Assembly: GCA_035940695.1 (NCBI GenBank)
Contig: DASZEQ010000029.1
Span: 106,548-170,547 of the forward strand
Length of the DNA stretch: 64,000 nucleotides
Source of the DNA: Pyrinomonadaceae bacterium
GTDB lineage: Bacteria; Acidobacteriota; Blastocatellia; Pyrinomonadales; Pyrinomonadaceae
Direction: 5' to 3'
Of this stretch, positions 3 through 55,123 are shown one piece after another (the first letter of the stretch is position 1; every line of letters starts with the position of its first letter). Under the pieces are notes generated by a model that worked only from the letters and a program-made list of their open reading frames with translations, did not search any database and was not told where the DNA came from. Both the position numbers and the translations under genes were made by a program.

Positions 3-134
3 GGTATGTTGATGGCGTTTTCCAATCGCAACGCGCGCGACGCCGCCGCCGCGACCTCCGCGCAAACGCGCCCGCAGGTTTCGTCGTCACGCACGGCTGC
101 CGATAAACCTTTCACCCCGGAGGCTGTTGAATGA
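3..134 (+). CDS. 3' end of an upstream gene (partial, product unknown)
   Basis: Open frame from the window edge with high GC3. Its TGA overlaps the ATG of the next gene (ATGA at 131-134). No recognisable motif. Confidence 0.3.
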   Translation, partial: GMLMAFSNRNARDAAAATSAQTRPQVSSSRTAADKPFTPEAVE

Positions 135-1774
135 GTGAGCAACAGGCCAATGTAAGAGTCGAATTCGCGTCCGTCACCGACCGCGGACTGAGCCAGAAGC
201 GACCGCTCAACGAGGACTCGATGCTCGTGGATGCGGAGCGGTGTATCTTCGCCGTGGCTGATGGCGTGGGCGGCGCACAGGCGGGCGAAGTCGCCTCGCA
301 AACGGCCGTCGAAGTGCTCGGCGAAGCGTTCCGTCATCACAAAGACGGCGACGACATCGAAGACCTGATGGAGATCGCCATCCAGCGCGCCAACGCTTCG
401 ATCTACCAGATGTCGCACGAGCAACGGCAACTCTCGATGATGGCGACCACCATCGTCGCGCTCCACTTGGACGGCCGCCGCGCCACCATCGGCCACGTCG
501 GCGATTCGCGCCTCTATCGCCTGCGACCCGACGGGCGGCTCGAACGCGAGACCGAAGATCATTCCGTGGTGGAGGAGGAGGTGCGCGCCGGGAGGATGTC
601 GCCGGAACAGGCGGCGCATCATCCGAGCCGCAACGTCATCAGCCGCGCACTCGGCGCGGAGCAGGCGGTTGAAGTTGACATGAAGACCATCGAGGTCGAA
701 GACGGCACGATCTTCTTGCTCTGCTCCGACGGCATCACGCGCCACATCCCCGACGAGGAGATCAACGCACTGCTGCACGGCGGCGATTCGCTCGATGCGA
801 CCTGCGAAGAGATGAAACGTCTGTGCTACGAGCGCGGCGCGGAGGATAATCTCACGGCGGTCGTCGTTCGCGTCGGCGCACAGCAGGCGCGCATCGTATC
901 GAGCGCGCCCGCGTCTGACGAAGACGACGAACGCACGCTCTTGACCGAACGCACGACGGCGCAGGCTTCAGCGGTCGCGGGCGGCCAGTTACACAACGTC
1001 GCCGCGTCGAGGAAGCAATTTCAAAATCCGCTCACCACGTCGGCCTCTCATAGCCTGCCGGATTCAACCGCCGCGCCGCGCGCGGGAAACAACAAGTTGC
1101 GAATCAACACGGAGGAAATTGCCGCCTTCGACGCCGCCGACACCGCCGCCGCCGCGACGCCGCCCCGCCCGGTTGAAACGCAACCGCGCAGCCCGACCGG
1201 ACGCGCGAGCAGTTGGTTCGGCGTGCTGTTATTGCTCTTGCTCGCATCGGCGGCAGCGTTCTACGGCGGCATCCGTTACCAGCAGAACAAGGCGGCGGGA
1301 GCGAACACGGTGGTCGCCGCGAACGACCCGCCCGCGCCCGTCGCCACCGCAACCCAGCGACCTGCGAGCGAACTGAACATCAACGACACCTACACGCGGC
1401 TGCGCGCGGCGGTTGACTTGTCGCCAAGCGTGGAGGCGCAGCGAATGGCGGGCGAGAACGGCGGGCGGCCTCTGGACTCGACGGATGCAGTCTTCCTTGC
1501 GCTCTACGGGCGCGCGCTCTTTTTGTCCGGCAAGTACCCGGAGGCGGTCGAAGCTTTGAAGCGCGCCAATGACAGGGTTGACGCGCAACGCGCGCCGGGA
1601 CGCGACCCCGTGCGTCTCGACACGCGCCTCGCGCTCGCCGCCGCCGCGCTGCGCGCCAACAACGCCGACGCGTTGCGCCTTGCATCCGATTCGTTCGGAA
1701 GCGTCATCGAAGATGCCGGGACGGGCGCGGCAACCGTCCCTTCGGTTGATACGGTTCCCGCGCCGGAGCGTTAG
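131..1774 (+). CDS. PP2C-family Ser/Thr protein phosphatase, membrane-anchored, with C-terminal TPR-like region
   Basis: PP2C motifs (NEDS, ADGVGG, GDSRLY, LLCSDG, EDNLTAVVV). Pro/Ala linker and one TM helix (WFGVLLLLLLASAAAFYGG). Lies next to a Hanks kinase. Confidence 0.9.
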   Translation: MSEQQANVRVEFASVTDRGLSQKRPLNEDSMLVDAERCIFAVADGVGGAQAGEVASQTAVEVLGEAFRHHKDGDDIEDLMEIAIQRANASIYQMSHEQRQLSMMATTIVALHLDGRRATIGHVGDSRLYRLRPDGRLERETEDHSVVEEEVRAGRMSPEQAAHHPSRNVISRALGAEQAVEVDMKTIEVEDGTIFLLCSDGITRHIPDEEINALLHGGDSLDATCEEMKRLCYERGAEDNLTAVVVRVGAQQARIVSSAPASDEDDERTLLTERTTAQASAVAGGQLHNVAASRKQFQNPLTTSASHSLPDSTAAPRAGNNKLRINTEEIAAFDAADTAAAATPPRPVETQPRSPTGRASSWFGVLLLLLLASAAAFYGGIRYQQNKAAGANTVVAANDPPAPVATATQRPASELNINDTYTRLRAAVDLSPSVEAQRMAGENGGRPLDSTDAVFLALYGRALFLSGKYPEAVEALKRANDRVDAQRAPGRDPVRLDTRLALAAAALRANNADALRLASDSFGSVIEDAGTGAATVPSVDTVPAPER

Positions 1775-1847
1775 GCTTCGCCGGGGCAATCGCGCCGGTC
1801 GCAGTTCAATAAGCGCGGAGCGGTTTTTGAGTTGAGTTCTCGGACGC

Positions 1848-3467
1848 ATGAGTGAATTGAAACTTCAACAGTGCAGGCTCGACGGACGCTACGACATTCT
1901 GGAATGTCTGGGGCGCGGCAGCTATGCCGAAGTTTATCTCGCACGCGACGCCGCCGCCGCCGGGGGCGGCTCGCCGCAGATGGTCGTGATCAAAGCGCTC
2001 AATCTTTTCCTGCAAGGCTCGATTGATCAGGAACTAGAACACACGCTCATCGAAAATTTCCGCAACGAGGCCGTCGCGCTCGACCGCGTGCGCCATCCGA
2101 ACATCATCAACCGCCTCGGCCACGGCACGGCCATCGACATGGCCGGACAGACGTTTCACTATCTCGTCCTCGAATACCTGCCCGGCGGCGACATGGCCGC
2201 GCTGTGCCGCAGCCAACCCCTCTCGCTCGACCGCGCGCTCTACTATCTGGATCAAATTTGCGACGGTCTCGCGCACGCGCACGAGCACGACGTGATTCAC
2301 CGCGACATCAAGCCGCAGAATTTGTTGCTCACGGCCGACCGTGAGGTCGTCAAGATCGCGGACTTCGGCGTCGCCAAGATCGAGGCCAGCGAAGGCTTGA
2401 TCACGCGCGTCGGGACGGACGTGTACGCCGCGCCGGAGCATCACCCGTTGATGCAGGCGGGCGTGCTCGGCACGGGTTCGCTCACGAGTCCGGTGACGCA
2501 ACTGACTCCGGCGGCGGACGTCTACTCGCTCGCCAAAACTGCCTACATGCTTCTGACCGGCGAAGCCCCGCGCCGCTTCTCGCAGCGACCGATTACGGAG
2601 TTGCCGCCGGGCGCGGCCGCTGCGCCGTGGGCGTCGTTCGTGCTGCGCGTCCTCAGACGCGGGACTGAGACAAACCCTGCGAAGCGTTACCAGAGCGTGC
2701 GCGAGTTCTGGAACGAACTGAGCGACGCCTTGATGCCGAAGACGCAATTGCTGACGCAGCCGAACGGCGAAGAGACGCGTGCCCTCTCGCAAATCAAAGG
2801 TCACAGCCAACGCCTCGCGCCGCTGCCGCCCGAACCTTCCCCCGCGCAGTTTGAACGCCCCGACGCGCAACCGCGACAGACGGGCGGAGCGAAAGTGCAC
2901 CCGCGCATCGTCGTTCCCGTCGCGCTGGCGCAACCGCCGCCGTCGCCGCCGCCGCAGACGAACGCGGCGCAAGCGGCCGTCGCCCAAACGTCGCACGCGC
3001 AGAAGATCCAAAAGTCGCCGCCGCCGGAGATACAAGCGAGGCCGAAAGAGCGCGTGTCGCTGATGCCGCGCAAGACTTGGTTTACTGAACATGCGCGCCC
3101 GTGGATCGTCGCGTTGTTGCTGCTGACGGGGTTTGCGTTGCTGCTGCTCGGCATCCAATACCGCGTGCGTAGCGGTCAAAGGAGCGCGCCCGCGAGCGCA
3201 GCGGGAGGGGCGACGACGAGCGCGCCCGCCGCGAATGCGGGCAGCCTGCAAGCGGGGCGTGAGATGTTGACGACGACTAATGTAAACTTGCGCAGCGGCC
3301 CCGGTCGAAATTATAACCGGGTCGGCGAGGTGGAGGGCGGTTCGCGCGTGCGTATTCTGCGAGTGAACGGCAACTGGTGCGAGGTGGAAGTAATTCAGAG
3401 GGGCTTCCCCAGAATCACCGAAGAGTCGGCCGACACTGGCTGGCTCGACGGGACGCGGTTAAGATAA
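1848..3467 (+). CDS. Hanks-type Ser/Thr protein kinase with TM helix and C-terminal SH3b-like domain
   Basis: HRDIKPQNLL, DFG and APE motifs. TM segment WIVALLLLTGFALLLLGI. C-terminal NVNLRSGPG...GNWCEVEV resembles bacterial SH3. Confidence 0.92.
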   Translation: MSELKLQQCRLDGRYDILECLGRGSYAEVYLARDAAAAGGGSPQMVVIKALNLFLQGSIDQELEHTLIENFRNEAVALDRVRHPNIINRLGHGTAIDMAGQTFHYLVLEYLPGGDMAALCRSQPLSLDRALYYLDQICDGLAHAHEHDVIHRDIKPQNLLLTADREVVKIADFGVAKIEASEGLITRVGTDVYAAPEHHPLMQAGVLGTGSLTSPVTQLTPAADVYSLAKTAYMLLTGEAPRRFSQRPITELPPGAAAAPWASFVLRVLRRGTETNPAKRYQSVREFWNELSDALMPKTQLLTQPNGEETRALSQIKGHSQRLAPLPPEPSPAQFERPDAQPRQTGGAKVHPRIVVPVALAQPPPSPPPQTNAAQAAVAQTSHAQKIQKSPPPEIQARPKERVSLMPRKTWFTEHARPWIVALLLLTGFALLLLGIQYRVRSGQRSAPASAAGGATTSAPAANAGSLQAGREMLTTTNVNLRSGPGRNYNRVGEVEGGSRVRILRVNGNWCEVEVIQRGFPRITEESADTGWLDGTRLR

Positions 3468-3516
3468 GTTTATACAAGTTCGGCTTGTTCGTTTAAAGAT
3501 CGAGAGGGATGGAAAC

Positions 3517-4368
3517 GTGAGCATACTGGAGTCTATTCGGAGGTGGATTGACGGCGAGGGCGAGGAAGACCCGCTCGCCTCGGTTGACGAACAGGCGAAA
3601 CCGCGCCGCGTCTGGGAAGAGTTTCTGGTGAAGGTCGCGCGCGAAATCGAGATCGTGATGCAGCGCGAGATGTTCACGCCGCCCGGCGGGCAGACTTACA
3701 TTCCGCCCGAGTACATCGTCTATTTGAGCAGCGAGGACGACAAAGACTGGCAGGGCGAGAAACGGCGCGGGCTGGAACAGGGACTTTTCTACGTGCTCTC
3801 GGAGCGCGCGCGCGAGTTGAGCGGCTCGACGCAACTCGCCACGAAATCTTTTGCCGTCGAACTGCGCGTTGACGGCACTCTGGAAAAGGGACAGTTTCGC
3901 GTGCAGCCCGTCTGGGACGCGACCGAGAGCGGCCACACGATGGTCACGGCGCGACCCGCCGAGGTGGACGCGCTGGCTTCCACGTCCGGCGCGGCGGAGT
4001 TGCCGGATACCGAATCGTCCGAGAGCGAAGTGACGCGCGTGAGTCCACGCATCGTCGAGTTGTATGCGGTCGAGTTGTGGCGCGGCGGGGTCAGGCAGAC
4101 GGTCGTGCCGATCACGAAGCCGGAGATCACCATCGGGCGCGGCTCAAAGTCCGTCGCCGTAGATTTGCCGATCAAGGGCGACCCGGAAGTGAGCCGCGTC
4201 CACGCGACGCTCTCGCGCGACCCCGAAGGCAAATACTGGCTCACCGCCAAAGGCCGCAACGTCACGCTCGTCTCCGGCGTCGAAGCCCCGCGCGATGAGA
4301 GCGTGCCGGTCGCGCCCGACGACAAGATCGAGATTTGCAGTTATACCCTGCGCATCCAGCCGCGTTGA
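3517..4368 (+). CDS. FHA-domain protein (FhaA-like: N-terminal DUF3662-like region plus C-terminal FHA)
   Basis: GTG start. C-terminal FHA signature (ITIGRG...SRVHATL...YWLTAKGRNVTLVSG). Sits in a PP2C-kinase-FHA triad. Confidence 0.85.
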   Translation: MSILESIRRWIDGEGEEDPLASVDEQAKPRRVWEEFLVKVAREIEIVMQREMFTPPGGQTYIPPEYIVYLSSEDDKDWQGEKRRGLEQGLFYVLSERARELSGSTQLATKSFAVELRVDGTLEKGQFRVQPVWDATESGHTMVTARPAEVDALASTSGAAELPDTESSESEVTRVSPRIVELYAVELWRGGVRQTVVPITKPEITIGRGSKSVAVDLPIKGDPEVSRVHATLSRDPEGKYWLTAKGRNVTLVSGVEAPRDESVPVAPDDKIEICSYTLRIQPR

Positions 4369-4757: not shown

Positions 4758-4807
4758 AACAATCAGAGGGGCGAAGGACTTATCCTTCGCCCCTCTGATT
4801 GTTTTGC
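4758..4807. terminator. Bidirectional intrinsic terminator between convergent genes
   Basis: 20-bp perfect stem aacaatcagaggggcgaagg / ccttcgcccctctgattgtt with a 6-nt loop, between the fdx stop and the HD-GYP gene stop. Confidence 0.8.
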
Positions 4808-4821
4808 GGCTGACGCGATAA

Positions 4822-6096
4822 CTAAGCGCTCCCGGCGGCGCGCGACGCGCTCGATTCAAGTTCCGCGATCAGTTCGACGAGAAGCGGGCGACACTCTTCC
4901 GGTTCGAGGTAGCCTTTGCCGAGCAGTTTCATCATCAGACGCTCTTTCGCCTCGCCGTTCACTTCCTTCAAGATCGCGCGGCAGAGGGCGGCCAACACTT
5001 CCGGCGCAAACTGCTTGCCCGCGTTCTTGCGAAAGTCTTCAATGACCTCTGTGAAAACTTTGCGCCGCTTGTAAGTGCGGTCGGTCGTCATCGCGTCGAA
5101 AGAGTCTGCGACGGCAACGATCTTCGCGCCGGGCGGTATCTGGTCGCCCGTCAAGCCTTCCGGGTAGCCGCGCCCGTCGATGCGCTCGTGGTGATATTTC
5201 GCCATCAGCGGAATGTCGGCGTAAGGGTGCTTGATGGGCGCGAGTATCTCGTAGCCGGCGGCGGGATGGCGGTTGAGTTCGGACGACTGCTTGGCGTCAA
5301 TTTTGTAGGGCGCGTTGATGATGTCGCGCTCGACGACGAGTTTGCCGATGTCGTGCAGGTAGCCCGCCACGGCGATGCCCTCGACCTGTTCCTCGCTCCA
5401 ACCCAACTCGCGCGCGATGATCTCGCTGTACTTGCCGACGCGCTCCGAATGCCCCTGCGTGTACTTGTCCTTGCAGTCGATGGCGGCGGCGAAGGCGCGC
5501 ACCGTGTCGCGGTAAATGGTGCGGAGATCGTCGTAGAGACCGCGCATCTCCTCCGCGCGCTGCTTGGCTTCGCGCAGCAGGCGGTGGTTGTAAATCCCGA
5601 CGCCGATATGCCGCGCCATCGTTCGCACCACTTCCCTCTCGGACGGCGTGAAAGCCTCGCCCGTCGCCTTATCGCCGAGCAGGATGAACCCGACGAACTT
5701 ATGATGCACGACGAGAGGCACGGTGAGTTGGAGACGAAATAGGACGAGCGTATTGAAGAGGCGTTCGCCGAGTTGATGCCGCGCGAGTTCGAGTTGATCC
5801 GTATCAGACAGCAACAGGGCGCGCGGGTGTGGCGTGGACAACATCTCCGCGCTCGCGGCGGCGAACGGCAGAACGGCGGGCGGCTCGTCGCCCAGTCCCC
5901 ACGCCGCGACGAAGCGCAACGCGTCGTCGCCCTGCATGTACTCGACCACCGCGCCGCGACGGACGCCGAGCGTGCCGAGCACGACGTGAAGCGTGGTCTG
6001 CACCATCTCCGCGAAGTCGCTCGTGTCCGCCAGTTCTTCGCCGAGGTCGGCGAGCGCGGAAAAGGCGTGGATCAATTTGGTTGTTTGCTCTGACAT
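4822..6096 (-). CDS. GAF-domain HD-GYP c-di-GMP phosphodiesterase
   Basis: HD...HDIGK...HHERIDGRGYP motifs. N-terminal GAF-like region. Start taken at MSEQTTK (ATG 6096), 4 nt after the stop of the upstream STAS gene; the track ORF extends to 6177. Confidence 0.88.
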   Translation of the reverse strand: MSEQTTKLIHAFSALADLGEELADTSDFAEMVQTTLHVVLGTLGVRRGAVVEYMQGDDALRFVAAWGLGDEPPAVLPFAAASAEMLSTPHPRALLLSDTDQLELARHQLGERLFNTLVLFRLQLTVPLVVHHKFVGFILLGDKATGEAFTPSEREVVRTMARHIGVGIYNHRLLREAKQRAEEMRGLYDDLRTIYRDTVRAFAAAIDCKDKYTQGHSERVGKYSEIIARELGWSEEQVEGIAVAGYLHDIGKLVVERDIINAPYKIDAKQSSELNRHPAAGYEILAPIKHPYADIPLMAKYHHERIDGRGYPEGLTGDQIPPGAKIVAVADSFDAMTTDRTYKRRKVFTEVIEDFRKNAGKQFAPEVLAALCRAILKEVNGEAKERLMMKLLGKGYLEPEECRPLLVELIAELESSASRAAGSA

Positions 6097-6100
6097 CAAC

Positions 6101-6505
6101 TCAAGTGTGCTTGCCGACCGGGACGGGAGAACGGTCGGGTAAATTCGGGTTCGACAACAGGCGGAGCGCGGCGTCAACGTCTGCGGCCAGCGCGGCGTGC
6201 ATCGTCAGGCCGAGTATCTCGAAGAGTTGCGCGGCCTGATCGTTGACGTTCGAGAAGACGAGCGGAGCGCGCGCGCGTTCGGCCGCGTCGATGACGCCGA
6301 GCATGATCGAGACGCCGATGCTGTTGACGAGTCCGGTGTTTTTGAAGTCCACGACGAGCGCGCGACAGCCCGCGGCGAGGGCGGCGCGACATTCGCGTTC
6401 GATGCGTTCCCCACTCAACTTGTTGAGATAGTCGCTCGCGTAAATGACGGCGATGTCGCCGCTGCGTTCGGAGCGCACCGGCGAGCGGTCGTGCAAGTCA
6501 ACCAT
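6101..6505 (-). CDS. STAS-domain anti-sigma-factor antagonist (SpoIIAA/RsbV-like)
   Basis: STAS layout with the conserved phosphorylatable-Ser context (VDFKNTGLVNSIGVSIM). Directly downstream of an RsbW-type kinase gene. Confidence 0.85.
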   Translation of the reverse strand: MVDLHDRSPVRSERSGDIAVIYASDYLNKLSGERIERECRAALAAGCRALVVDFKNTGLVNSIGVSIMLGVIDAAERARAPLVFSNVNDQAAQLFEILGLTMHAALAADVDAALRLLSNPNLPDRSPVPVGKHT

Positions 6506-6518
6506 TGTTTTGACCCCT

Positions 6519-8789
6519 CTAGCGACGTAGGTATTTCGTCATACGTAGACGCGTGCCGTCGTCAACCCGCTCGAACTCGACTTCATCCATCAGAGTCCGA
6601 ATCAGCTTGAGACCCCATCCGCGGCGTCCGTTATTCTCTTCTCGTGCGACGTTGCCGTTGGTTCCGGCGTTCGTGGGGGAGGGCACGATAATACCCCTGC
6701 TTGATACTGTGACGACTAATTTATCACTTTCGAGACGAAAACGTTGATAAATTTTTCGGTCGGGGCTGAGACTGTGCTCCGCCGCGTTGATGCACGCCTC
6801 AATGAGGGCGGTTTTGATCTGGTTGATGGCCTCGGATGAGAAGTCCAGACGGCGCGCGATCTGCTCGACCGTGTGCGCGGCGATCAGTTCCGTGTCGCTC
6901 CCCATCGGGATCACCATCTCGAACTCGTCCGGCGCGTTGCCCTGCGCCTCCGCGCTCCCGTCGCTTGAATCCGGGCTGAGGCGCGCGGTCAGAAATTCGA
7001 GTTGTTTGCGGCTCGAACTGAACGCGCCCCGCTCGTTTAACAGTTCGGAAGCCTCTGCCGAAAATCCTTCCGGGGCAACCAGCCACAGCTTGAAGCGTTT
7101 GAAGCCGCAGGAGTGGCCGACCTGCGTGAGACGGTCGCACCAAACTTCGGTGACGGCGCGACCCGCTTCGAGTTTGGAATCGATCTCGGCGGTGAGCCAG
7201 ATGATCTCGTTGGCATCGTTGTAAGGCATCGCGTCGAAACCGTGCGCGACGGCGCAGCGTTCCTCGTCGCAGACGAGCAGCATCGGCGGGTGAAACGAAG
7301 CGCAACTCGCCGCGTGGACGATTTGCGGCAGGCGAATCAAATCGGTCTCGGCGTCGAGACCGAGTTCGATCTCTGCGGTTTCGATGCCGCGATAGATGCG
7401 ACTGAAACGGTCGTAATGCAAAAGACTGGCGGCGACCCGTTGCGCGTCGAAGCGCGCGAGCAGTTCGCGCAGGTTGAGCGCGGCGGCGCGGCGATAATGA
7501 CGCGCCATCGTCTGCGGGGCGCGTTTCAAAGTCTCGACGAGCGTGTCGGCCACGACGAGCGCGCGGGGTTCGGCGGCGACTTGCAGGCGATAGCTCGCGC
7601 GCAGGTAATCGCGCCACAGGCTCTCCGTGCCGATCTCCATGAAGGTGGCGTTAAAGCTGGCGAGTTCGCGCACGTGCAGGGCAAACATCAACGGGTAGAG
7701 TTCATCAGGCTCAAGCTCCAGACGCCTGCGCCAAGCCTCGACGGGCGACTTGCCCCCGGCGTTCGTCGCCGCGTCGTGCAAGAGTCGAATCAGCGCGCGA
7801 CGGATGGTGAGCGAGGGCGTGACCTCTTCGAGCAGAGAGTTGAAGCGGCGATTGATGCGCCCGCCCAAAAGCTCGTCCACGTAAATTTTCTGGCATTCGA
7901 GAAAACTGGTGAGCGAGGCGTTGTCGCGGTGCGCCGCGTACATAAACGAGGCGATGTAGAACGGGCTGCCGCCGAACAGTTGCACGACGAGGTCGCGCGT
8001 TTCGTCGTTAATGGCGACGCGTTCCGTAAAGGCCAGACGCTCGACGAGCGTGCGCGCGTCCGCCTCCTTCAACCCTTCGAGATGGATCGTGCCGAAACCG
8101 TCGAAGCGGTGCGGCGCGTTCCCGCCGCTCAACTCGTCGAGCAGCCCGCGTCGCAATCCGCACAGGACGAACGGCGCGTCGCCGTGCATGGCGACCTGCG
8201 CGATCTCGTTGCCGAGTTCGACCTCGCCGCGCAATTTTTCGACGTTCTGAATTTCGTCCAACAGCACGACGGAACGCGCGCCGCGCGCCGCCGCGAGCAC
8301 CGGCGCGCCGAAACAGAGACGCACCAGCGCGAGTTCGTCGCTGCCGTCGCGCGCGCGTTCATAGGTCATCACCAGACGCTCGACCCATTCGTAGTCCGAA
8401 GGGTCTGCGAGGTCGATCAGGTCGCGCAGGGCGGGCGGCGAGTTGACGAACGAGGCGTCGTCGCGGCGGTGCGCGACGAGTTGCGAAAGGAACGTGTGAA
8501 GGAAACGACGCGCGACGGCCGCCACGCTCTGCTCTTGGCGCGTGAAGGCGAAATAGATGGGCGAGGCCGCGCCGCGCTGCTGGAAGAGTTTGTCGTAGGC
8601 TTGCCGCAACAGTTCGGACGCGCCTGCGGCCGGCGCGGCGTGAACGAGCAGCCCGCGTCGCGGCGAAGTGGAAGGCGCAAGCGCGGTGATCTCGCGCAAG
8701 TGCTCGCCGCGCCCGATGAAATTTTCCGGTGCGACGCGGCCGAGGATGCGCTTGGCCGGGGCGGCCTTGAAGGTATTTTCAGTTGACAT
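6519..8789 (-). CDS. Fusion protein: degenerate AAA/Arch-ATPase-like module, DUF234-like region and C-terminal RsbW/SpoIIAB-type HATPase_c serine kinase
   Basis: N-terminal FIGRGEHLREI, then a P-loop-like VHAAPAAGASELL that lacks the Lys, and Walker-B-like VVLLDEIQN. C-terminal N-box EACINAAEHS and G-box RRGWGLKLI. Start taken at MSTENT (8789), overlapping the upstream gene by 11 nt. Confidence 0.75.
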   Translation of the reverse strand: MSTENTFKAAPAKRILGRVAPENFIGRGEHLREITALAPSTSPRRGLLVHAAPAAGASELLRQAYDKLFQQRGAASPIYFAFTRQEQSVAAVARRFLHTFLSQLVAHRRDDASFVNSPPALRDLIDLADPSDYEWVERLVMTYERARDGSDELALVRLCFGAPVLAAARGARSVVLLDEIQNVEKLRGEVELGNEIAQVAMHGDAPFVLCGLRRGLLDELSGGNAPHRFDGFGTIHLEGLKEADARTLVERLAFTERVAINDETRDLVVQLFGGSPFYIASFMYAAHRDNASLTSFLECQKIYVDELLGGRINRRFNSLLEEVTPSLTIRRALIRLLHDAATNAGGKSPVEAWRRRLELEPDELYPLMFALHVRELASFNATFMEIGTESLWRDYLRASYRLQVAAEPRALVVADTLVETLKRAPQTMARHYRRAAALNLRELLARFDAQRVAASLLHYDRFSRIYRGIETAEIELGLDAETDLIRLPQIVHAASCASFHPPMLLVCDEERCAVAHGFDAMPYNDANEIIWLTAEIDSKLEAGRAVTEVWCDRLTQVGHSCGFKRFKLWLVAPEGFSAEASELLNERGAFSSSRKQLEFLTARLSPDSSDGSAEAQGNAPDEFEMVIPMGSDTELIAAHTVEQIARRLDFSSEAINQIKTALIEACINAAEHSLSPDRKIYQRFRLESDKLVVTVSSRGIIVPSPTNAGTNGNVAREENNGRRGWGLKLIRTLMDEVEFERVDDGTRLRMTKYLRR

Positions 8790-10899
8790 CGCGGGCGGGG
8801 GTGACCGGGGTGTTTTTGGCGGGAAGGACGTAAGAGACGACGCAGTTTTTACCGCGACTCTTGGCGACGTAGAGCGCGTGGTCGGCTGCGCCGATAATGC
8901 CGGATGGGGTTTCGATCTTTGGCCCGAAAGCCGAGATGCCGATGCTGACCGTGATTGCACCGCGCGGCTGGCTCTCGCCGTGCGGGTACGAAGATTTCTC
9001 GACGCGGCTGCGGATGCGTTCGGCGATCACGAGGGCTTCCGTCGCGCTTGTCTGCGGCAGCAGGATGCTGAACTCTTCGCCGCCGTAACGCGAAGCCACG
9101 TCGGCCGAGCGCAGCGCGGACTTCAAACACTGCGCGGTGATCTCCAGCGCGAGGTCGCCCGCCTGATGGCCGTGGCGGTCGTTGTACTCCTTGAAATTAT
9201 CGATGTCGATCATCAAAAAGCTCATCGGGAAGCGATGGCGTTTTGAACGCTCGAACTCCTCGGCCAGACGTTCTTCGAGATAACGACGATTGAGCAGTCC
9301 CGTCAACGGGTCGGTGATGGAGAGCAACTGGAACTGCGTCGCCTTCTGATGCCAGCCCGCGCGGTCGAGCGCAAGCGCCATCTGCGGAGCCATCGACTCA
9401 AGCAGGTGCAGATCGATTTCGTCGTAAGGCTCGCCGCCCGCCTTGTCCGTCATGTTAATGACGCCGACTTTCCGCCCGCCCGTGATGATCGGGTAGCTGA
9501 TGAAAGAATCCGTCTTGTACTTGCGCTCGGCGGGCGCGCGGTGCAACTCGGTCGCCGTCAGGTCGCGCACGACGCGCGGGCGTCCGTCGAGCAATACCGC
9601 CCCCGACACGCTCTCGCCCACGCGCACGCGCGCGTCCTGCGTCACGTCGGCGCGCGGCCCGACCGCCGCTTTTACTTCGAGTTCGTTCGCCGCCTCGTCG
9701 AACAGCAGCAGCGAGCCGCGTTCCGAGCGCAGCAGTTCGGTCGAGTGGCGCAGGATCGCCGCGTAAGCTTCGGACGGTTCGACCTCGTTGATTTGCTGCG
9801 TGAATGTTTGCAGGTGATATGAGGCGCGCAAGTTGCGCTCCAACTCTTCGCGCAGGCGCAGCACTTCGAGCGGCATCGCGATCTCAAGACAAAATTCGTT
9901 CACGCCGCGCCGCTTCTCTTCCGGCAGTTTGGCGTCGCCCACGAGCAGCGCGCCCTTCAATTCGTCGCCGACGACGAGCGGGAAAAGCTCCGTCTCCTCG
10001 TCCTGAAACACGTACGACTGCCACGCGCCGCCCTCGACGCTTCCCGGCAAATTCTGCGGCTCGCCCTTCTTCCCTTTGCCGGATAAATCGGGCAGCTTGT
10101 TTTTGAATCTACCCATCGCGCACGCGGGCGCAAAGCCCTCTTTCGTTCGCAGCATGAGCGCGACGGACTTGATCTTGAATCGCTCGCTAAACCTTTTCAG
10201 CGCGGTCTCGCAAGCGACTTGCAGTTTTATGCCCGGCGGAAAATAAACGTCGCCCGCGCCCTTCTCGTAAGCGTTTCCTTCAACTTCGCCCGGCTGCGCC
10301 GACTGCTGCGCTGCTGCGCGCACATGCCCCCCGGCCGTCTGCCCTGCGGGTTCGACCGTCGTCGCCGTCACGCTTCGCACGCCCGCCTTGGAAGAAATTT
10401 CGGCCAGTTGCGCGGCCAGTTCGTCGAGGTTGTGACGCGCGGCGAAGATGACGTTGCGGAAAAGTTCGGTTGAGAGCAACTCGCGCAAGTCGCCCTTGCG
10501 AAAACGTTCGGCCAGTTCACGATAGTCCGCGCCCGACAAAAAAGCGCGACCGCCGATGACAGCGAGCGGGCGCGATGCATCCAGCCCGACGGGCATCGCG
10601 AAACAATGCAGCCCGGCGTGGCAGCGATAATGAGTCGCCTCGCCCGCTTCCTGCGCGCGTTGGAAAGCGACGCCGCAGTAGGGGTCGCAGAGGTGCGCGT
10701 GCGTCGTTGAGCTTTGTAGGGCGTGGCAGATGGAGTTGTTGTTTGAGATGGCGAGTTGCGGCGGTTGATGGCCGTCAACCAGAAGGATCGCCAGATCGGT
10801 CTCAGCCGCCACGGACGCCTGTAGACGCTCCCACTCAGGGAGCGCTTGCAGTTCTTCGTTCTGGAATTTCGCACGCTCGGCGGCGGCAATCTTTTCCAT
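8779..10899 (-). CDS. PocR-GAF-GGDEF diguanylate cyclase
   Basis: PocR-like Cys/His sensor motif (ICHALQ...HLCDPYC...YRCHAGLHCFAMPV), a central GAF region, and C-terminal RYGGEEF with the DxLTGL..NRR linker. Confidence 0.85.
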   Translation of the reverse strand: MEKIAAAERAKFQNEELQALPEWERLQASVAAETDLAILLVDGHQPPQLAISNNNSICHALQSSTTHAHLCDPYCGVAFQRAQEAGEATHYRCHAGLHCFAMPVGLDASRPLAVIGGRAFLSGADYRELAERFRKGDLRELLSTELFRNVIFAARHNLDELAAQLAEISSKAGVRSVTATTVEPAGQTAGGHVRAAAQQSAQPGEVEGNAYEKGAGDVYFPPGIKLQVACETALKRFSERFKIKSVALMLRTKEGFAPACAMGRFKNKLPDLSGKGKKGEPQNLPGSVEGGAWQSYVFQDEETELFPLVVGDELKGALLVGDAKLPEEKRRGVNEFCLEIAMPLEVLRLREELERNLRASYHLQTFTQQINEVEPSEAYAAILRHSTELLRSERGSLLLFDEAANELEVKAAVGPRADVTQDARVRVGESVSGAVLLDGRPRVVRDLTATELHRAPAERKYKTDSFISYPIITGGRKVGVINMTDKAGGEPYDEIDLHLLESMAPQMALALDRAGWHQKATQFQLLSITDPLTGLLNRRYLEERLAEEFERSKRHRFPMSFLMIDIDNFKEYNDRHGHQAGDLALEITAQCLKSALRSADVASRYGGEEFSILLPQTSATEALVIAERIRSRVEKSSYPHGESQPRGAITVSIGISAFGPKIETPSGIIGAADHALYVAKSRGKNCVVSYVLPAKNTPVTPARDVN

Positions 10900-11081
10900 G
10901 CTGAATCCGGTGGCGTTGGGATGTACCCGTTGCGTGGTTAAGGGGCGAGTCTGGGGAATGAAGTCCGGCGACGGAGGTTAATCGCGCGCCAGATCAGAAC
11001 CGGCGCGCGAGGCCGGGTTGCGCCGCCCTCACAGCAGTATAAGTGTCCCGCTGTCAAGAGACAAGACTATTCTACAGAAAG

Positions 11082-11103
11082 ATTTAACCGCGGCCGGTTA
11101 AAT
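11082..11103 (-). terminator. Putative intrinsic terminator after the ABC ATPase genes
   Basis: 9-bp stem atttaaccg/cggttaaat with a 4-nt loop, followed on the minus strand by ctttctgt. Confidence 0.5.
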
Positions 11104-11170
11104 CATCGCCCAAAGCGAGAGATGAAGTGTCTGCAATCTTTGTCTGTAAACGACGAATCGCACGCCTTTT

Positions 11171-17971: not shown

Positions 17972-20272
17972 TTAGCGATTAGCCTTTTGTCTAGATTTCG
18001 ATCTGGTTTCCGGTCGCATGAGGCTGACCCGGCGCGTCCGCGTCGGCTTTCGCAAGGCGAGCAAATCGTTGTGCCGCCCGTTGACGATGTAGGCGAGACC
18101 CTGATGCGTGATGTTGAGGAGACGTGCGGCGCGCGTGATGCTCCCGCCCGCGCTGTCGAGGGCGAGCCGGATCAAATTGCGCTCGTAGGCGCGCACCTCT
18201 TCTTCGAGTGAACAACCCGTCCACGCCGCGCCGAAATTGGACTTGCTCGTCTGCCTGAGGGCGACCGTCTCCACCGCTTCCGCCGTGACGAGCGTTTCCT
18301 CCGAAGCCGTGATGAAGGTTCGCTCGATGAGAACACGCAACTCGCGCGCGTTGCCGCGCAGAGGCAGACGAGTCATCGCCTCCAGACTTTCGGGCGTAAA
18401 AGTAAGTTGCTTGTGGTAACGCTTCCGTGCTTCCGCGATAAAGTGCCGCGCGAGCGCGGGGATGTCTTCGGGTCGCTCCCTGAGCGGCAGGAGTTCAAGA
18501 TGAAAAGCGTTCAAGCGATAGAAAAGGTCTGCGCGGAAAAGACTGCGACTCACGCGCTGCCACAAGTCGTGATTGGTCGCCGCGATGATCCGCACATTAA
18601 CCCGCACCGGCAACGAACTGCCAATCGGGTAAATCTCCCCGTGATCAATCAGCCGCAGCAGTTTGGCTTGATGTGCCAGACTCAGTTCGCCGATCTCGTC
18701 GAGGAAGAGCGTCCCGCCCTCTGCTTCGAGCGCAGTGCCCGCATAATCTTCCGTCGCGTCGGTGAAACTTCCCTTCTTATGGCCGAACAGTTGGGACTCG
18801 ACGAGCGTGTCGCAGAGCGCGGCGCAGTTGAGCGCGACGAAACGACCGCTGCGACCGCTCCATTCGTGAATCAGACGCGCCATCACATCTTTTCCCGTCC
18901 CCGTCTCGCCGCTCAACAAAACCGAGCCTTCACCCAGCGCGATGGCTCTCGCCTCTTGCAACAAGCTCGCGGTCTTTTCAGAACCGTGGACGAACGTGCG
19001 TGTGCCGGACTCGACCGCCTTCTTGGCCTTTGCCTGCGGCATGATCAGATGACGGGCGCAAGCGCGCAGACGCGAGAGCAGTTCCGGTTGCTGTGTCTGT
19101 GAAAGCAATTCGTCGGCGCGCACGTAGATGGCTTGCAACTCTTCCGGCGCGTAATCATGCGTCAGTTCTTCGAAAATAGTGAGCAGGGCGCAGCCCGCGC
19201 CTTCCCGGTCGTTGAGTTGCTCGCTGATAGCGACCGCACGTTGGAACGCGTCGCGCGCCTGTGTGCGTCGCCCCAGACGAGTGAGGGCGATGCCCTGCGT
19301 GATCAAAGCTTCCGCCAGCAGGGCTTGCTCGTCGCCGCGCTCAAGTGTATGGACGGCGGCGCGGACGATTCGCTCGGCCTCGGAGTTGCAGCCCTGCGCG
19401 AGCAGTGCGCGGGCGCGCGTTTCGTCAACCTGCGCGGCGCGCACTCCGTCCTTCAAACGGATGAAGAGTCGGCGCGCGCGTTCGAGATGTTCGAAGGCTT
19501 CTTCAAAGCGGCCGGTACGGAAAAGGGAGAATCCCAGATTGTTTTCGACGCTGGCGAGATAATGCGTGTGTCCCGCCTGTTCCAGATGAAAACTCGCTGC
19601 CGTTAATTCGATTAAAGCATTGTCTATGTAATCCGGCCGCTTCTCCGCAACGCCGATGGATTCCCATGTTCCGGCCAGCGTGCTATGGAATTTGCCCTTT
19701 AGCGCGGGACTCTCGCATTCCCTGATGAGCGGCGCGGCGTCGAGCAAGATTGTGAGCGCGTCCCTGTGGCGCGCGGCCGAACGTTCGACTTCCGCGCGTC
19801 TCACCTGTGCAATACCTTTTAACTCAAGTTCGGAATCCGGCAGACCGTCCAACGCGTGCCGGAGCATCAGGCGCGCTTCGTCGTAGCTACCTTCGCGCCA
19901 GTAGCACCACGCCAACTCGATTTCCGCCTCCGACGCTCTGCCGGTCTCGCCGAGCGAGGCAAAGAGCGACCTGCTTTCGCTGATTAAATCTTTCGCGGCA
20001 TCCTGCGAACCTGCGACCTGATGCGCGCTGCCCAACCATCCACTTAACACCCCGGCGCGCAACAAAACCAAGGCCTGAGTCACCGCTTCAAAGCCTTCCA
20101 CATTGGGGCGCACGCCGATTCCCTGCCACAACGCGCCCAAGGCCTGTCGCGCGGTTTCATAGTTTCCGGCCTTTTCTAGTTCCTGCGCTAGCGTACAACG
20201 GAGTTGAGCCTGTGAGTCGGGAGTGCGCCCGATTTCGTCGATTTGGTGCAGCAGAGTTGTGGTTAAGTACAT
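17972..20272 (-). CDS. Sigma-54-dependent enhancer-binding protein with N-terminal TPR sensor region
   Basis: AAA+ core GETGTGKDVMARLIH, ESQLFGHKKGSFTDA (GAFTGA variant), GGTLFLDEIG, RELRVLIER, and a C-terminal Fis-type HTH (AARLLNITHQGLAYI). About 430 aa of TPR-like repeats replace a receiver domain. Confidence 0.88.
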   Translation of the reverse strand: MYLTTTLLHQIDEIGRTPDSQAQLRCTLAQELEKAGNYETARQALGALWQGIGVRPNVEGFEAVTQALVLLRAGVLSGWLGSAHQVAGSQDAAKDLISESRSLFASLGETGRASEAEIELAWCYWREGSYDEARLMLRHALDGLPDSELELKGIAQVRRAEVERSAARHRDALTILLDAAPLIRECESPALKGKFHSTLAGTWESIGVAEKRPDYIDNALIELTAASFHLEQAGHTHYLASVENNLGFSLFRTGRFEEAFEHLERARRLFIRLKDGVRAAQVDETRARALLAQGCNSEAERIVRAAVHTLERGDEQALLAEALITQGIALTRLGRRTQARDAFQRAVAISEQLNDREGAGCALLTIFEELTHDYAPEELQAIYVRADELLSQTQQPELLSRLRACARHLIMPQAKAKKAVESGTRTFVHGSEKTASLLQEARAIALGEGSVLLSGETGTGKDVMARLIHEWSGRSGRFVALNCAALCDTLVESQLFGHKKGSFTDATEDYAGTALEAEGGTLFLDEIGELSLAHQAKLLRLIDHGEIYPIGSSLPVRVNVRIIAATNHDLWQRVSRSLFRADLFYRLNAFHLELLPLRERPEDIPALARHFIAEARKRYHKQLTFTPESLEAMTRLPLRGNARELRVLIERTFITASEETLVTAEAVETVALRQTSKSNFGAAWTGCSLEEEVRAYERNLIRLALDSAGGSITRAARLLNITHQGLAYIVNGRHNDLLALRKPTRTRRVSLMRPETRSKSRQKANR

Positions 20273-31149: not shown

Positions 31150-32000
31150 GTCTTCTGGTATTCGTAAAACCCGCGCCCGGTTTTGCGGCCGAGCCAACCG
31201 GCGTCAACGTAACGCTTGAGCAGCGGGCAGGGGCGATACTTAGGGTCGCCCAGTTCTTCGTGCAAGACGTTGAGGATGGCGAGGCACACGTCGAGGCCGA
31301 TGAAGTCTGCGAGCGTGAGCGGCCCCATCGGGTGATTCATGCCGAGTTTCATGATGCCGTCGATTGCTTCGCGCGTGGCGACCGATTCGTAGAGCGCGAA
31401 GATGGCCTCGTTGATCATGGGCATCAGGACGCGATTGGAGACGAAGCCCGGCGAGTCGTTGCATTCGAGCGGAATCTTTTCGAGCCGTTCGGTCAGCGCG
31501 TGCGTGCGCGCGTAAGTCTCGTCGGAGGTGGCGATGCCGCGAATCACCTCGACGAGTTTCATCACCGGCACGGGGTTCATAAAGTGCATGCCGATGACGC
31601 GTTCGGGGCGGCGCGTCGCCCCGCCGAGTTTCGTGATCGAGATGGAAGAGGTGTTCGAGGCGAGGATGGCTTCGGGCGCGGTCAGTTCGTCGAGCGCGCG
31701 GAAGATTTCCGCCTTGACCGCAAAATTCTCCGTCACGGCTTCGACGACGAACTGCGCCTCTTTGAGCGCGTCCAACTCGGTCGTCGCGCTGATGCGGCCG
31801 ATGATGGCGCGCTTCTCCTCTTCCGCGAGACGCGCTTTGTCCACGTCGCGTTGCAGGCTGCGGTCGATGCTCTTGAGGCCGCGCTCCAAAAACTCGTCTT
31901 TCACGTCGCGCATGACGACCGTGTAGCCCGCACGCGCCGCCACCTGTGCGATGCCGTTGCCCATCGTCCCCGCGCCGATCACCCCGATTGTCTCTGTCAC
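31146..32000 (-). CDS. hbd: 3-hydroxybutyryl-CoA / 3-hydroxyacyl-CoA dehydrogenase
   Basis: Rossmann motif [15 protein letters not shown]. 3HCDH N- and C-terminal domain motifs. Start taken at GTG 32000; the track ORF extends to 32186. Confidence 0.9.
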
Positions 32001-32022
32001 TTTTCGCGTCTCCCCTGAAAGT

Positions 32023-32532
32023 TTATTCGTTGCGCCAGTCCGGCGGTTGCGCGGGCGGCACGTACTCGCGCTCGCGCCCCTGATTCGCACGCGCGTTCCA
32101 CTCGGACGCGGACGGCGGCGGCGGGGGCGTATCGCGCAACGCGTAAGGCCGTTGCGGGCTGGTATATGTTTTGTCGTACATCGCACGCCCCGCGTCGCTG
32201 AACATGAACCAGAAAGAATAGAACGCCACGGCCGTGCCGAACGGGAAACTCAACGCCTCCAGCACGGCCGCGACAACGCTCGCCGTTTTCGCCCAAGATT
32301 TATGCTTCAAGATCGCGTAGCCCGCGATGAACGAGGGCAGCATGAGGACGACAGACCAGAGCGCGATGAAGCTCAGGACGATCATCAAGACGCCCACGGG
32401 AGCCTCGCCGCCGGGAATCGCAAACATGATCGCCCCGAAAAAAACCAGCATGGCGAGCACCATCAACGCGCTCATGCCCCCGTAGGCCAGATGGCAGATA
32501 CCGACAGCCTTGTTGTGTTCCTCGGGCGTCAT
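32023..32532 (-). CDS. Integral membrane protein, unknown function, Pro-rich C-terminal tail
   Basis: Four hydrophobic helices. Abuts the thiolase stop with no gap. No motif recognised. Confidence 0.6.
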
Positions 32533-33723
32533 TTATCGCTCCACGGCCATCGCCACAGCGTTGCCGCCGCCGAGACACAGAGCGCACAGCCCGCGCCGCG
32601 CGTTGCGGCGTTTCATCTCGTAGAGGATGGTCGTCAGCAGTCTCGAACCCGATTGGCCGATGGCGTGGCCGAGCGCGACCGCGCCGCCGTTGACGTTCAC
32701 CTTCGCCGGGTCGAGTTCCAGTTCGCGGATGATGGCGACGGCCTGCACCGAGAACGCTTCGTTGAGTTCGATCAGATCGACTTCGTTCAGAGACCACCCG
32801 GCCTTCTTCAAGACTTTGCGGATCGCCTCGACGGGAGCCATCATCACGAGTTCCGGCTGGATGCCCGAAGTGGCCTGCGCCGCGATGCGCGCCAGAGGCT
32901 CGACGCCGAGCGAGCGCGCGCGTTCGAGCGACGTGACGACGACCGCCGATGCGCCATCGTTGACGCCCGGCGCGTTGCCCGCCGTCACCGTTCCGCCTTC
33001 CTTCTTGAACGCGGGCTTGAGCTTGGCGAGGGCTTCGAGCGAAGTGTCTTCGCGCACGGCCTCGTCCGTGTCGAACATGATGGGCGCGCCCTTCTTGTTC
33101 GGAATCTCCACGGGGACGATCTCGTCTCTGAACTTGCCCGCCTTGATCGCGGCGGCGGCCTTGCGGTGCGAGTTCAGGGCGTACTCGTCCTGCTCCGCGC
33201 GCATCACATTGTAGCGTTCGGCGACGACCTCGCCCGTGTTGCCCATGTGATAATTCTCAAAGGCGCACCACAGCCCGTCGTGAATCATCGCATCGACGAG
33301 CGTGCCGTTGCCGAGACGGTAGCCCTCGCGCGCCTTCGGCAACAGGTACGGCGCGTTCGACATGCTCTCCATGCCGCCCGCGACGACGATTTCGGCATCG
33401 CCGAGTTTCACCTCCTGCGCCGCCATCATCACGGACTTCAAACCCGAACCGCAGACCTTATTGATCGTCACGGCCGAGACGCCGAACGGAATCCCGCCCT
33501 TGAGCGCGGCCTGTCGCGCAGGGTTCTGGCCGACGCCCGCCTGCACGACGTTGCCCATGATCACTTCGTCCACGTCTTCCACTGCGACGCCCGCGCGCCT
33601 GACGCTCTCGCGCACGACGAGCGCGCCCAAATCGGTCGCCGAAAAATTCTTCAACGCACCTTGAAACTTCCCTGTCGGCGTCCGCGCCGCGCTGATGATG
33701 ACCGCCTCTGTATTATCCGGCAT
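32533..33723 (-). CDS. Acetyl-CoA acetyltransferase (thiolase II)
   Basis: Thiolase motifs ([10 protein letters not shown] active-site Cys, [23 protein letters not shown]). AAGGAG Shine-Dalgarno. Confidence 0.93.
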
Positions 33724-33739
33724 GATAACTCCTTAAAAA

Positions 33740-33817
33740 GTGACAAGTGACAGGTGACAGGTGACAAGTTAGAAGAACAAGCTGTTTTAACTTGTCACCC
33801 GTCACCTGTCACTTGTC
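33740..33817. repeat. Heptamer-hairpin element, GTGACAR family (upstream of thiolase)
   Basis: gtgacaa gtgacag gtgacag gtgacaa gttagaa, then loop, then ttaacttgtcacccgtcacctgtcacttgtc. About 30-bp stem with one mismatch. Confidence 0.93.
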
Positions 33818-41031: not shown

Positions 41032-41144
41032 CGCGTTTGAGAAAAGACGTGGTGAGTTAAGGCGACTTGCGGCCACGTAAAATAAACCGCTAAACAGCAC
41101 GACTCTTCCGTCGAAGCGCCACCCTCTTCGAGCCGCTTTTCTGA

Positions 41145-54214: not shown

Positions 54215-55123
54215 TCAGGGCTGGTGGATGACGCGCCGCAGTTCGGCGGTGAAGCCGTCGAGGGTGGCGCGCACGAGCACCGCCGCGCGCCCTTTCGTGA
54301 AACGCGGCAGCCACGCGTGAATGGTCGCCACGCCGTCGCCGTCGGAACGCGTAGTTAAAATCAACGGGCGAAACTCCGTGCCGAGAACTTTGACCGTAAC
54401 GGGCACGTTCGCCGTCGCCTCGCGGCGGTCGCCCACGCCGCGACTGACACGGACGCGGATCGTCACCACTTCGCCCGCGTGAAATTCGCGCTCCTCCATC
54501 AGGCTCAAATGCAGCGCGCCTTCGGCTTCAACCTGAATGAAGTCGTCCTCCTCCTGCTTGCTTGCGGGGCGGACGGGTTCTACGTGCTGCGTTCTGGCGG
54601 GCGGTCTGGGTGACGGCTGCGGTTGGCTCATGGCAGGAGGAGGAGGCGGCGGCGGCGCAACTTCCAGCGGGACATCTTCCAGCGCGAGAATGTCGAACTC
54701 GTCCTCGATGGGTTGAAATTCAGGCGCGCGCGCTTCCACTATTGCCGGGGCGGTTTCGATAGTTTTCGCCGGAGCTTTCGCCGGGACGGATTTTGGCGCG
54801 GGCGGCGCGGCCGGTGTGGGCGGCGCGGGCGGCGCGACCACGTCGGCGTTCTCGCGCGGCGACAGGCGTTTGAGGTCTTCTATCCGCCCGGCTTTGACGG
54901 CGGCGCAGATGAGCTTGTGCTGGCGTTGGAGACGTTCGGTGAGGACGAGCGGGTCGAAGCCCGCGTTGATGAGGTCTTGATAAGGCGAACGCTTGCTCGC
55001 CAGAATCGCTCCGCCCACGTAGACGAGCGACAGGATTAGAGGCGTGTCGAGTCCTTTGTCTTCCGTCTGGACGTGGTACACGACGCCGTTAAACTCTATA
55101 TCCGTGTTGAAGCCAGTGATCAC
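54215..55123 (-). CDS. Hypothetical protein (conserved N-terminal domain, Pro-rich linker, C-terminal beta-rich domain)
   Basis: GTG start. [24 protein letters not shown]... N-terminus and a [13 protein letters not shown] linker. No recognised family. Confidence 0.65.

Follow-up and report, generated by a model that had tools for sequence, protein, structure and literature searches.

A four-gene operon of Blastocatellia joins an RsbW-like hub and a STAS protein to predicted enzymes of c-di-GMP synthesis and degradation: a candidate sigma-free partner switch

Here, we describe a four-gene operon on the minus strand of a 64,000-nucleotide stretch of DNA from a Pyrinomonadaceae bacterium (Acidobacteriota, Blastocatellia; GenBank assembly GCA_035940695.1, contig DASZEQ010000029.1, positions 106,548 to 170,547). 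This whole stretch is called the window, and coordinates refer to it unless another locus is named. The operon encodes a diguanylate cyclase, a large protein with a C-terminal RsbW-like domain that we term the hub, a STAS protein and an HD-GYP phosphodiesterase. The catalytic motifs of both enzymes are intact and the four genes are co-conserved across clades and phyla, standing together in considerably more than 100 genomes of soil bacteria. Very probably the four proteins constitute one module for cyclic di-GMP (c-di-GMP). The best explanation we can offer, with a probability of about 0.5, is a single signalling module whose output is c-di-GMP and not a sigma factor, and in which the cyclase and the HD-GYP enzyme are gated through the hub and the STAS protein. 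For the narrower proposal that the hub genuinely phosphorylates Ser62 of the STAS protein the chances are about even. The four genes, with the sources on which their description draws (ORF, open reading frame), are:

8779-10899, minus strand: PocR-GAF-GGDEF diguanylate cyclase, 706 amino acids (ORF list, translations, Pfam)
6519-8789, minus strand: hub protein with C-terminal RsbW-like domain, 756 amino acids (ORF list, Pfam, AlphaFold2, Foldseek)
6101-6505, minus strand: STAS protein, 134 amino acids (ORF list, Pfam, PDB sequence alignment)
4822-6096, minus strand: GAF-HD-GYP phosphodiesterase, 424 amino acids (ORF list, Pfam, PDB relatives)

An earlier note on this DNA, written from the sequence alone, had described four co-directional and tightly packed genes at 4822-10899, and the ORF list and the translations bear this out. 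The cyclase and hub genes overlap by 11 nucleotides (8779-8789), a gap of 13 nucleotides (6506-6518) separates hub and STAS, and one of 4 nucleotides (6097-6100) separates STAS and HD-GYP. We place the start of the hub at the ATG at 8789, the same Met being present in all close homologues; the longest ORF extends to a GTG at 8960. The HD-GYP protein is likewise counted from an ATG, the longest ORF having its start, a TTG (6177), within the STAS gene. All domain calls of the note (PocR-GAF-GGDEF, a C-terminal HATPase_c domain, STAS and GAF-HD-GYP) were confirmed by Pfam, and the motifs that it quoted, RYGGEEF, LVNSIG, HDIGK and HHERIDGRGYP, are all found in the translations.

Gene neighbourhoods support a common function. 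The hub family comprises 229 clusters at 50% identity (E <= 1e-30), with full-length members down to about 25% identity, and at least 584 species-level genomes contain a relative of the hub. Almost all named matches belong to Pyrinomonadaceae, Chloracidobacterium or other Blastocatellia. More than 170 loci (numbered with the letter L below) were gathered from genomes and metagenomes; the context counts use 167 of them, and 149 are left after collapsing hubs more than 90% identical. Partner genes were located by iterated profile searches, adjacency was defined as a distance within 400 nucleotides (from the GGDEF end to the hub start, and from the hub to the STAS start), and each count is limited to loci with enough sequence. 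The cyclase gene is the immediate upstream neighbour of the hub in 111 of 113 loci, the STAS gene directly downstream of it in 109 of 125, and the HD-GYP gene comes next after STAS in 87 of 98. All four genes are contiguous in 72 of the 84 fully covered loci. These adjacency counts are slight underestimates because some of the misses are failures of ORF-based detection, which overlooked genes found by tblastn (STAS in L004 and L008, the cyclase in L064). The four-gene block is intact in loci with other flanking genes (L068, L070, L073, L075 and L078). It also keeps its order beside P-II and MacB genes in L082, where the hub is only about 27% identical, beside secDF and with overlapping reading frames in L172, and with unrelated flanks in L167, a metagenome-assembled genome of Thermodesulfobacteriota. 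The block occurs in at least four unrelated flanking contexts. Neighbourhood conservation had been named beforehand as a check on the proposed system, and the four genes are indeed co-conserved across clades to about 25% hub identity, in two phyla and with unrelated flanks.

The cyclase matches PocR (7e-15), GAF_2 (4e-19) and GGDEF (9e-49) in Pfam and scores 179 bits against TIGR00254 (cut-off 37.4); its score against the SiaD equivalog, 161.7 bits, is under the cut-off of 290. Its active site reads RYGGEEF and is preceded, five residues upstream, by an RxxD I-site (RSAD). Both GGEEF and the I-site are kept in 124 of 128 cyclase orthologues. The position that specifies guanine, equivalent to D344 of PleD, is Asp (...YNDRHGHQAGD...) and remains so in 113 of the 128. 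Hypr cyclases carry Ser there. The nucleotide of the module is likely c-di-GMP, as judged from these residues. We considered cyclic GMP-AMP (cGAMP) as the nucleotide, the best PDB relative of the HD-GYP protein being the 3'3'-cGAMP phosphodiesterase V-cGAP3, but rejected it in view of the guanine-specifying Asp of the cyclase. In L001, a contig of 5 Mb, PocR is a separate ORF of 190 amino acids followed by a GAF-GGDEF ORF of 504 amino acids (7784-9983 of that locus), which reflects a genuine gene split or else a frameshift.

The HD-GYP protein matches GAF_3 (1.6e-9) and HD_5 (2.7e-33), and its closest relatives in the PDB are 5z7c (5e-33) and 4mcw (2e-31). Its HDIGK and HHERIDGRGYP motifs are intact, and the HD and HHExxDGxGYP motifs are kept in 113 of 113 phosphodiesterase orthologues. 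Because the catalytic motifs of cyclase and phosphodiesterase are retained across orthologues, both enzymes are expected to be active. A ligand shared through paralogous GAF domains was discarded as an idea, the GAF domains of the two enzymes being only remotely alike (24% over 45 residues).

The STAS protein is recognized by the Pfam STAS family (6.5e-8) and reaches 26.2 bits against the NCBIfam model ant_ant_sig, under its cut-off of 53.45. Its Ser62 aligns with the phosphorylated Ser of the DSTGLG motif in RsbV and SpoIIAA. The surrounding motif T-x-LVNSIG[VI]SIL, Ser62 included, is invariant in 129 of 129 non-identical orthologues. In the distant four-gene locus L082 the STAS gene (10334-10981) encodes a tandem double STAS protein of 215 amino acids.

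The hub is more than an extended RsbW. Pfam finds a C-terminal HATPase_c_2 domain (PF13581, 8e-20) and a weak AAA_16 match (4e-4). We built an AlphaFold2 model on 35 family members (mean predicted local distance difference test score 87.7, predicted TM-score 0.82) and compared it with the PDB by Foldseek. In this model, residues 1 to about 400 adopt an AAA+/ORC-like fold matching 2fna, 2qen, ORC/Cdc6 and STAND NTPases with E-values of 4e-9 to 1e-7, residues from about 440 to 605 form an alpha/beta domain to which Foldseek assigned no significant family in the PDB, and residues from about 620 to 756 are predicted to form an RsbW-like GHKL domain that superposes on RsbW (6m36) and SpoIIAB. Thus about 600 of the 756 residues would belong to the AAA+/ORC-like and the alpha/beta domain. 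The fit of the last 135 residues to RsbW of the RsbV/RsbW complex 6m36 is close (Foldseek TM-score on the target 0.95, root-mean-square deviation 1.2 A), and phmmer also finds this RsbW, at 3.8e-9. The N-box (EACINAAEH, with E664, N668 and H672) and the G2 box (RRGWGL, R723-G-W-G726) are essentially invariant in the 205 family sequences compared. The N-terminal half shares its fold with the archaeal-type AAA+ ATPases of PF01637 (SSO1545, 2fna; PABY2304, 2qen), ORC/Cdc6 and STAND NTPases but differs from them in that the Walker A Lys is lost in the hub clade of the window. Here, the Walker A motif is degenerate (APAAGAS, with Ala57 instead of Lys); the Lys is present in 33 of the 205 sequences, all of them from distant clades, and is mostly replaced by Ala, Val or Gly in the others. 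Distant family members have a canonical GxxxxGKT Walker A motif and match PF01637 over its full length. As far as the searches made here show, no known AAA+, ORC or STAND protein is fused to an RsbW-like domain.

Natural variants of the locus offer clues to the wiring. The STAS and HD-GYP genes were never found apart, being retained, relocated or lost as a pair, and insertions of foreign genes fall between hub and STAS. The RsbW-like nucleotide motifs track the presence of STAS: in a distant two-gene clade (L084, L086 and L171), which lacks both STAS and HD-GYP, the N-box His and the G2 glycines are lost. In another arrangement (L093, 2089-12421) a TPR protein of 1784 amino acids is followed by a hub with full-length PF01637 and HATPase_c_2 matches, STAS and HD-GYP, and no diguanylate cyclase is present; L087 and L170 probably share this arrangement. 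Judging from the variant loci, the hub is the common element, and cyclase-hub and STAS-phosphodiesterase are two tight pairs. This pairing implies that the STAS protein may act on the phosphodiesterase, and the linkage pattern suggests a STAS-HD-GYP connection at least as much as one between STAS and the cyclase. The earlier note had pictured the STAS protein or the kinase as toggling between cyclase and phosphodiesterase; linkage favours the two pairs.

The variants also bring side observations of their own. The genes inserted between hub and STAS encode a methyltransferase and a family-2 glycosyltransferase in L037 (12333-16750) and L041 (9459-11223), and in L037 also an NAD-dependent epimerase. 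These polysaccharide-type genes are a possible clue to what the module controls. In L084, L086 and L171 a PatA_N-domain protein of about 370 amino acids always precedes the cyclase-hub pair, and a sigma-54 response regulator is encoded further upstream.

From this material we propose a scheme whose protein-protein contacts, phosphorylation step and directions of effect are all inferred. The hub would be made together with the cyclase, with which it forms a nearly invariant and translationally coupled pair, and would act on it directly. Its RsbW-like domain would bind the STAS protein and probably phosphorylate Ser62. In its free, unphosphorylated form the STAS protein would act on the product of the adjacent gene, the HD-GYP enzyme, and perhaps on the cyclase as well, by analogy with SiaC-SiaD, HsbA-HsbD and BgrV-BgrR. 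A change of partners would raise one of synthesis and degradation while lowering the other. Likely inputs would be the PocR domain, the two GAF domains and the AAA+-like half of the hub.

Several observations weigh against this scheme. The genes that flank the operon in the window, those of an ATP-binding cassette (ABC) transporter and an FHA, serine/threonine kinase and PP2C cluster, are also syntenic within Pyrinomonadaceae. Since close relatives share these flanks, their co-conservation adds little independent weight. About 10-15% of loci have the cyclase-hub pair alone, with the RsbW-like motifs intact; these loci (L057, L060, L067, L076, L077, L079, L164, L168 and L169) are scattered among four-gene relatives, and in such genomes the STAS gene would have to lie at another site unless the hub can do without STAS. 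No PP2C is encoded on the operon strand in any locus, and no phosphatase is co-conserved with the module. A further point concerns the nucleotide pocket. In GHKL ATPases the Asp of the G1 box binds the amino group of adenine. This Asp is absent from all 205 hub family sequences, of which 135 have Ser at the position and 67 have Asn, and Ser697 of the hub stands opposite it in both PDB sequence alignments. The equivalent residue of RsbT is presumably D78. The RsbT variant D78N is kinase-dead and still binds its partners (PMC11821858). With the Asp replaced in all members of the family, and in light of this variant, kinase activity of the hub cannot be assumed. The description of the hub as an RsbW-type kinase in the earlier note therefore holds for the GHKL/RsbW fold, as seen by Pfam and Foldseek, but the protein is atypical in its roughly 600 extra residues and in the exchange of the G1 Asp throughout the family.

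The main rival keeps the module and its output and takes the RsbW-like domain as a pseudokinase. Nucleotide or ligand bound to the hub would set the choice of partner, and Ser62 would be kept for binding or structure. There is precedent for such a switch in SpoIIAB, where adenosine diphosphate versus triphosphate sets partner choice, and the missing G1 Asp mimics the binding-competent, kinase-dead RsbT variant. Without phosphotransfer no phosphatase would be needed, which would explain why none is co-conserved in any clade. The entire STAS motif is invariant, and not Ser62 alone. Against a pseudokinase speaks the invariance of the N-box Glu, Asn and His and of the G2 box, which have decayed only where STAS is absent; this argues for a nucleotide-dependent activity tied to STAS. 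Moreover, Ser is kept at the phospho-acceptor position in 129 of 129 STAS orthologues. On balance we hold a pseudokinase switch to be possible but somewhat doubtful.

The exchange of the G1 Asp can also be read as a change of nucleotide preference in the GHKL pocket, with guanine taking the place of adenine. Asp serves as hydrogen-bond acceptor for adenine N6, and the Asn or Ser found in its stead throughout the family can act as donor towards guanine O6; the rest of the pocket is invariant. The hub would then use guanosine triphosphate (GTP) or sense GTP, guanosine monophosphate (GMP), pGpG or c-di-GMP, gating both enzymes in opposite directions through the STAS protein. This suggestion is speculative and rather unlikely to be right. 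If it were true, the operon would be a self-contained c-di-GMP homeostat or toggle and the first STAS partner switch to target a phosphodiesterase.

Returning to partner switching with c-di-GMP as output, sigma-free switches acting on diguanylate cyclases are established in the SiaABCD, BgrV-BgrR and HsbA-HsbD systems (PMC8457831). A sigma-free partner switch on a cyclase is thus not new in principle. The earlier note, which cited HsbA-HsbD as its only precedent, had called the four-gene arrangement, as far as its author knew, a system not described before. This stands for the gene set, of which full-text literature searches on partner-switching, STAS, HD-GYP, PocR, GGDEF and anti-sigma gave no description, but not for the general principle.

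The SiaABCD system of Pseudomonas aeruginosa, composed of the PP2C SiaA, the kinase SiaB, the STAS-like SiaC and the cyclase SiaD, is, like the proposed module, a sigma-free switch in one operon with a diguanylate cyclase. SiaC binds and activates SiaD unless it is phosphorylated (PMC8457831). Yet SiaC belongs to DUF1987 and not to the Pfam STAS family, and the Sia system pairs a small kinase with a PP2C of its own, SiaA, and lacks a phosphodiesterase. The module described here, in contrast, has no PP2C, a 756-residue AAA+-fused "kinase" that lacks the G1 Asp, and an HD-GYP enzyme within the unit. The Bgr system of Sinorhizobium meliloti has RsbU- and RsbW-like partners. It resembles the module proposed here in that a true STAS protein, BgrV, controls a dedicated cyclase, BgrR, in a manner that depends on phosphorylation state and involves no sigma factor (Baena et al. 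2019, cited in PMC8457831 and PMC13438883). BgrV represses its cyclase (PMC13438883). Unlike in the present operon, neither an HD-GYP enzyme nor an AAA+-fused hub has been described for Bgr. In the HptB-HsbR-HsbA-HsbD pathway of P. aeruginosa it is again a STAS protein, HsbA, that controls a diguanylate cyclase, HsbD (PMC8457831, PMC6482189). This pathway differs in several ways: a phosphorelay drives HsbR, a single protein with receiver, PP2C and kinase domains; HsbA has further effects on the anti-sigma factor FlgM and on the availability of RpoS; and no phosphodiesterase partner has been described. What is distinctive of the present module are the integral and co-inherited HD-GYP enzyme, the AAA+/ORC-like fusion, the systematic loss of the G1 Asp and the absence of a PP2C.

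The classical systems of Bacillus, RsbW-RsbV-SigB and SpoIIAB-SpoIIAA-SigF, share with our module the RsbW fold of the hub C-terminus and the alignment of Ser62 with the phosphorylated Ser. One could ask whether the hub and the STAS protein are a conventional anti-sigma/anti-anti-sigma pair, with a sigma factor and a phosphatase located at other sites in the genome, and whether the cyclase and the phosphodiesterase are merely co-transcribed with them. The C-terminal domain of the hub is closest to RsbW and SpoIIAB, and our data cover 64 kb of the genome, so that a remote sigma factor is conceivable. However, the present operon differs from the Bacillus systems in having no sigma factor, no phosphatase of the RsbU, RsbP or SpoIIE type and no G1 Asp, and the hub has about 600 extra N-terminal residues, which anti-sigma factors lack. 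It scores far under the NCBIfam equivalog cut-offs (59.6 bits against 145 for RsbW, 46 bits against 135 for SpoIIAB). That the operon holds neither a sigma factor nor a PP2C had been stated before and agrees with what we find among its genes. No sigma factor is encoded among 30 other ORFs scanned in the window either (small ORFs were covered in part), nor in the Pfam-annotated neighbourhoods of L001, L082, L084, L086, L167, L168, L169 and L172. The four-gene order is kept across phyla amid unrelated flanks, and the most conserved feature is the cyclase-hub pair. We consider a conventional anti-sigma pair improbable.

Even less credit is due to the view that four independent signalling genes lie side by side through inherited synteny, without functional coupling. 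The conserved flanks within Pyrinomonadaceae favour it, but the block is kept with differing flanks, in distant clades and in another phylum, stop and start codons overlap between genes, and the loss of STAS and HD-GYP correlates with decay of the kinase motifs in L084 and L086. Finally, an anti-phage defence or conflict system built from a STAND-like NTPase, a nuclease-like domain and second-messenger enzymes is hardly credible: the hub N-terminal half does resemble STAND/ORC NTPases and the middle domain of one distant hub homologue has weak restriction-endonuclease-like matches (Mrr_cat_2, 0.014; NA-iREase1, 0.069), but PADLOC found nothing for cyclase, hub and STAS and, for the phosphodiesterase, no more than a generic HD similarity, both enzymes are of the canonical c-di-GMP type, the whole family carries the locus in stable synteny on the chromosome, and distant clades do not retain the acidic and Lys residues that would be catalytic in a nuclease. 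A nuclease-like middle domain of the hub was set aside in view of the weak matches in a single homologue and of these missing residues, and stays a remark at the level of the fold.

Two candidates for the missing phosphatase were rejected. The only PP2C in the window (131-1774) had been noted as the partner of a Hanks kinase, and the scan of the 30 other window ORFs agrees, no further PP2C being among them. It is encoded on the strand opposite to the operon together with the Hanks kinase and an FHA protein. In L001 this cluster continues into FtsW/RodA and a transpeptidase, which marks it as a cell-wall-type kinase cluster. The PP2C belongs to this FHA, Hanks kinase, FtsW and penicillin-binding protein cluster, is absent from the distant four-gene loci and is an unlikely component of the module. 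A phosphatase hidden in the insertions between hub and STAS was likewise set aside, the inserts encoding methyltransferase, glycosyltransferase and epimerase.

Known partner switches reach c-di-GMP through the cyclase only, whereas here synthase and degrading enzyme share one operon. If both are indeed under one switch, this would amount to push-pull control of c-di-GMP. The combination of an AAA+/ORC-like and an RsbW-like domain in a hub devoid of the adenine-binding Asp poses the question whether such a protein works as a kinase, as a pseudokinase or as a sensor of guanine nucleotides. The natural variants, namely the cyclase-hub pairs, the hub-STAS-phosphodiesterase trio and the clade with decayed motifs, can serve as controls for a dissection of the module. 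It is a conserved chromosomal part in Blastocatellia, abundant soil Acidobacteriota in which almost no signalling has been studied experimentally, and offers an entry point to their c-di-GMP-dependent regulation.

The surroundings of the operon are as follows. Upstream lie oligopeptide ABC transporter genes. Downstream follow a convergent ferredoxin ORF and then the FHA, Hanks kinase and PP2C cluster on the plus strand. Candidate control elements at the borders are:

11081-11104, minus strand: terminator-like hairpin at the end of the upstream ABC transporter unit (consensus scan, 10-pair stem followed by a T run; a pattern match only)
11036-11064, minus strand: weak sigma-70-like promoter candidate TTGTCT-17-TATACT, about 140 nucleotides upstream of the cyclase ATG (consensus scan, 9/12 matches)
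4758-4803, no strand assigned: hairpin (stem of 21 bp) separating the HD-GYP stop codon from the convergent ferredoxin ORF (-44.2 kcal/mol, z = -9.1)

The last hairpin folds better than any of 200 shuffled sequences (0/200 fold equally well) and is probably a bidirectional terminator. With hairpins on both sides and a promoter-like site, the four genes look like a self-contained operon on these sequence criteria. At gathering thresholds Rfam found no riboswitch or other known RNA within the operon or its leader.

Some features of the window are independent of the operon. The FHA, SH3-bearing Hanks kinase and PP2C cluster (131-4368, plus strand; L001 15140-22274), with its extension in relatives into FtsW/RodA and a transpeptidase, resembles the actinobacterial fhaA-pstP-rodA-pbpA-pknB cluster. 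A sigma-54 activator of 766 amino acids (17972-20272, minus strand) has TPR repeats in its N-terminal half instead of a receiver domain, and two ORFs of 599 and 302 amino acids (31951-33750, plus strand; 54215-55123, minus strand) have no Pfam match at E <= 1e-5. A protein of 1743 amino acids (43425-48656, plus strand) carries Big_2, Lamin-tail and PD40 repeats. At 41039-41114 on the plus strand, just upstream of a fused homocysteine S-methyltransferase/methylenetetrahydrofolate reductase gene (41258-43153), lies a SAM_alpha riboswitch that scores 41.6 bits with RF00521, above the gathering score of 36. The family is named for Alphaproteobacteria, and the closest relatives of the window are Acidobacteriota.

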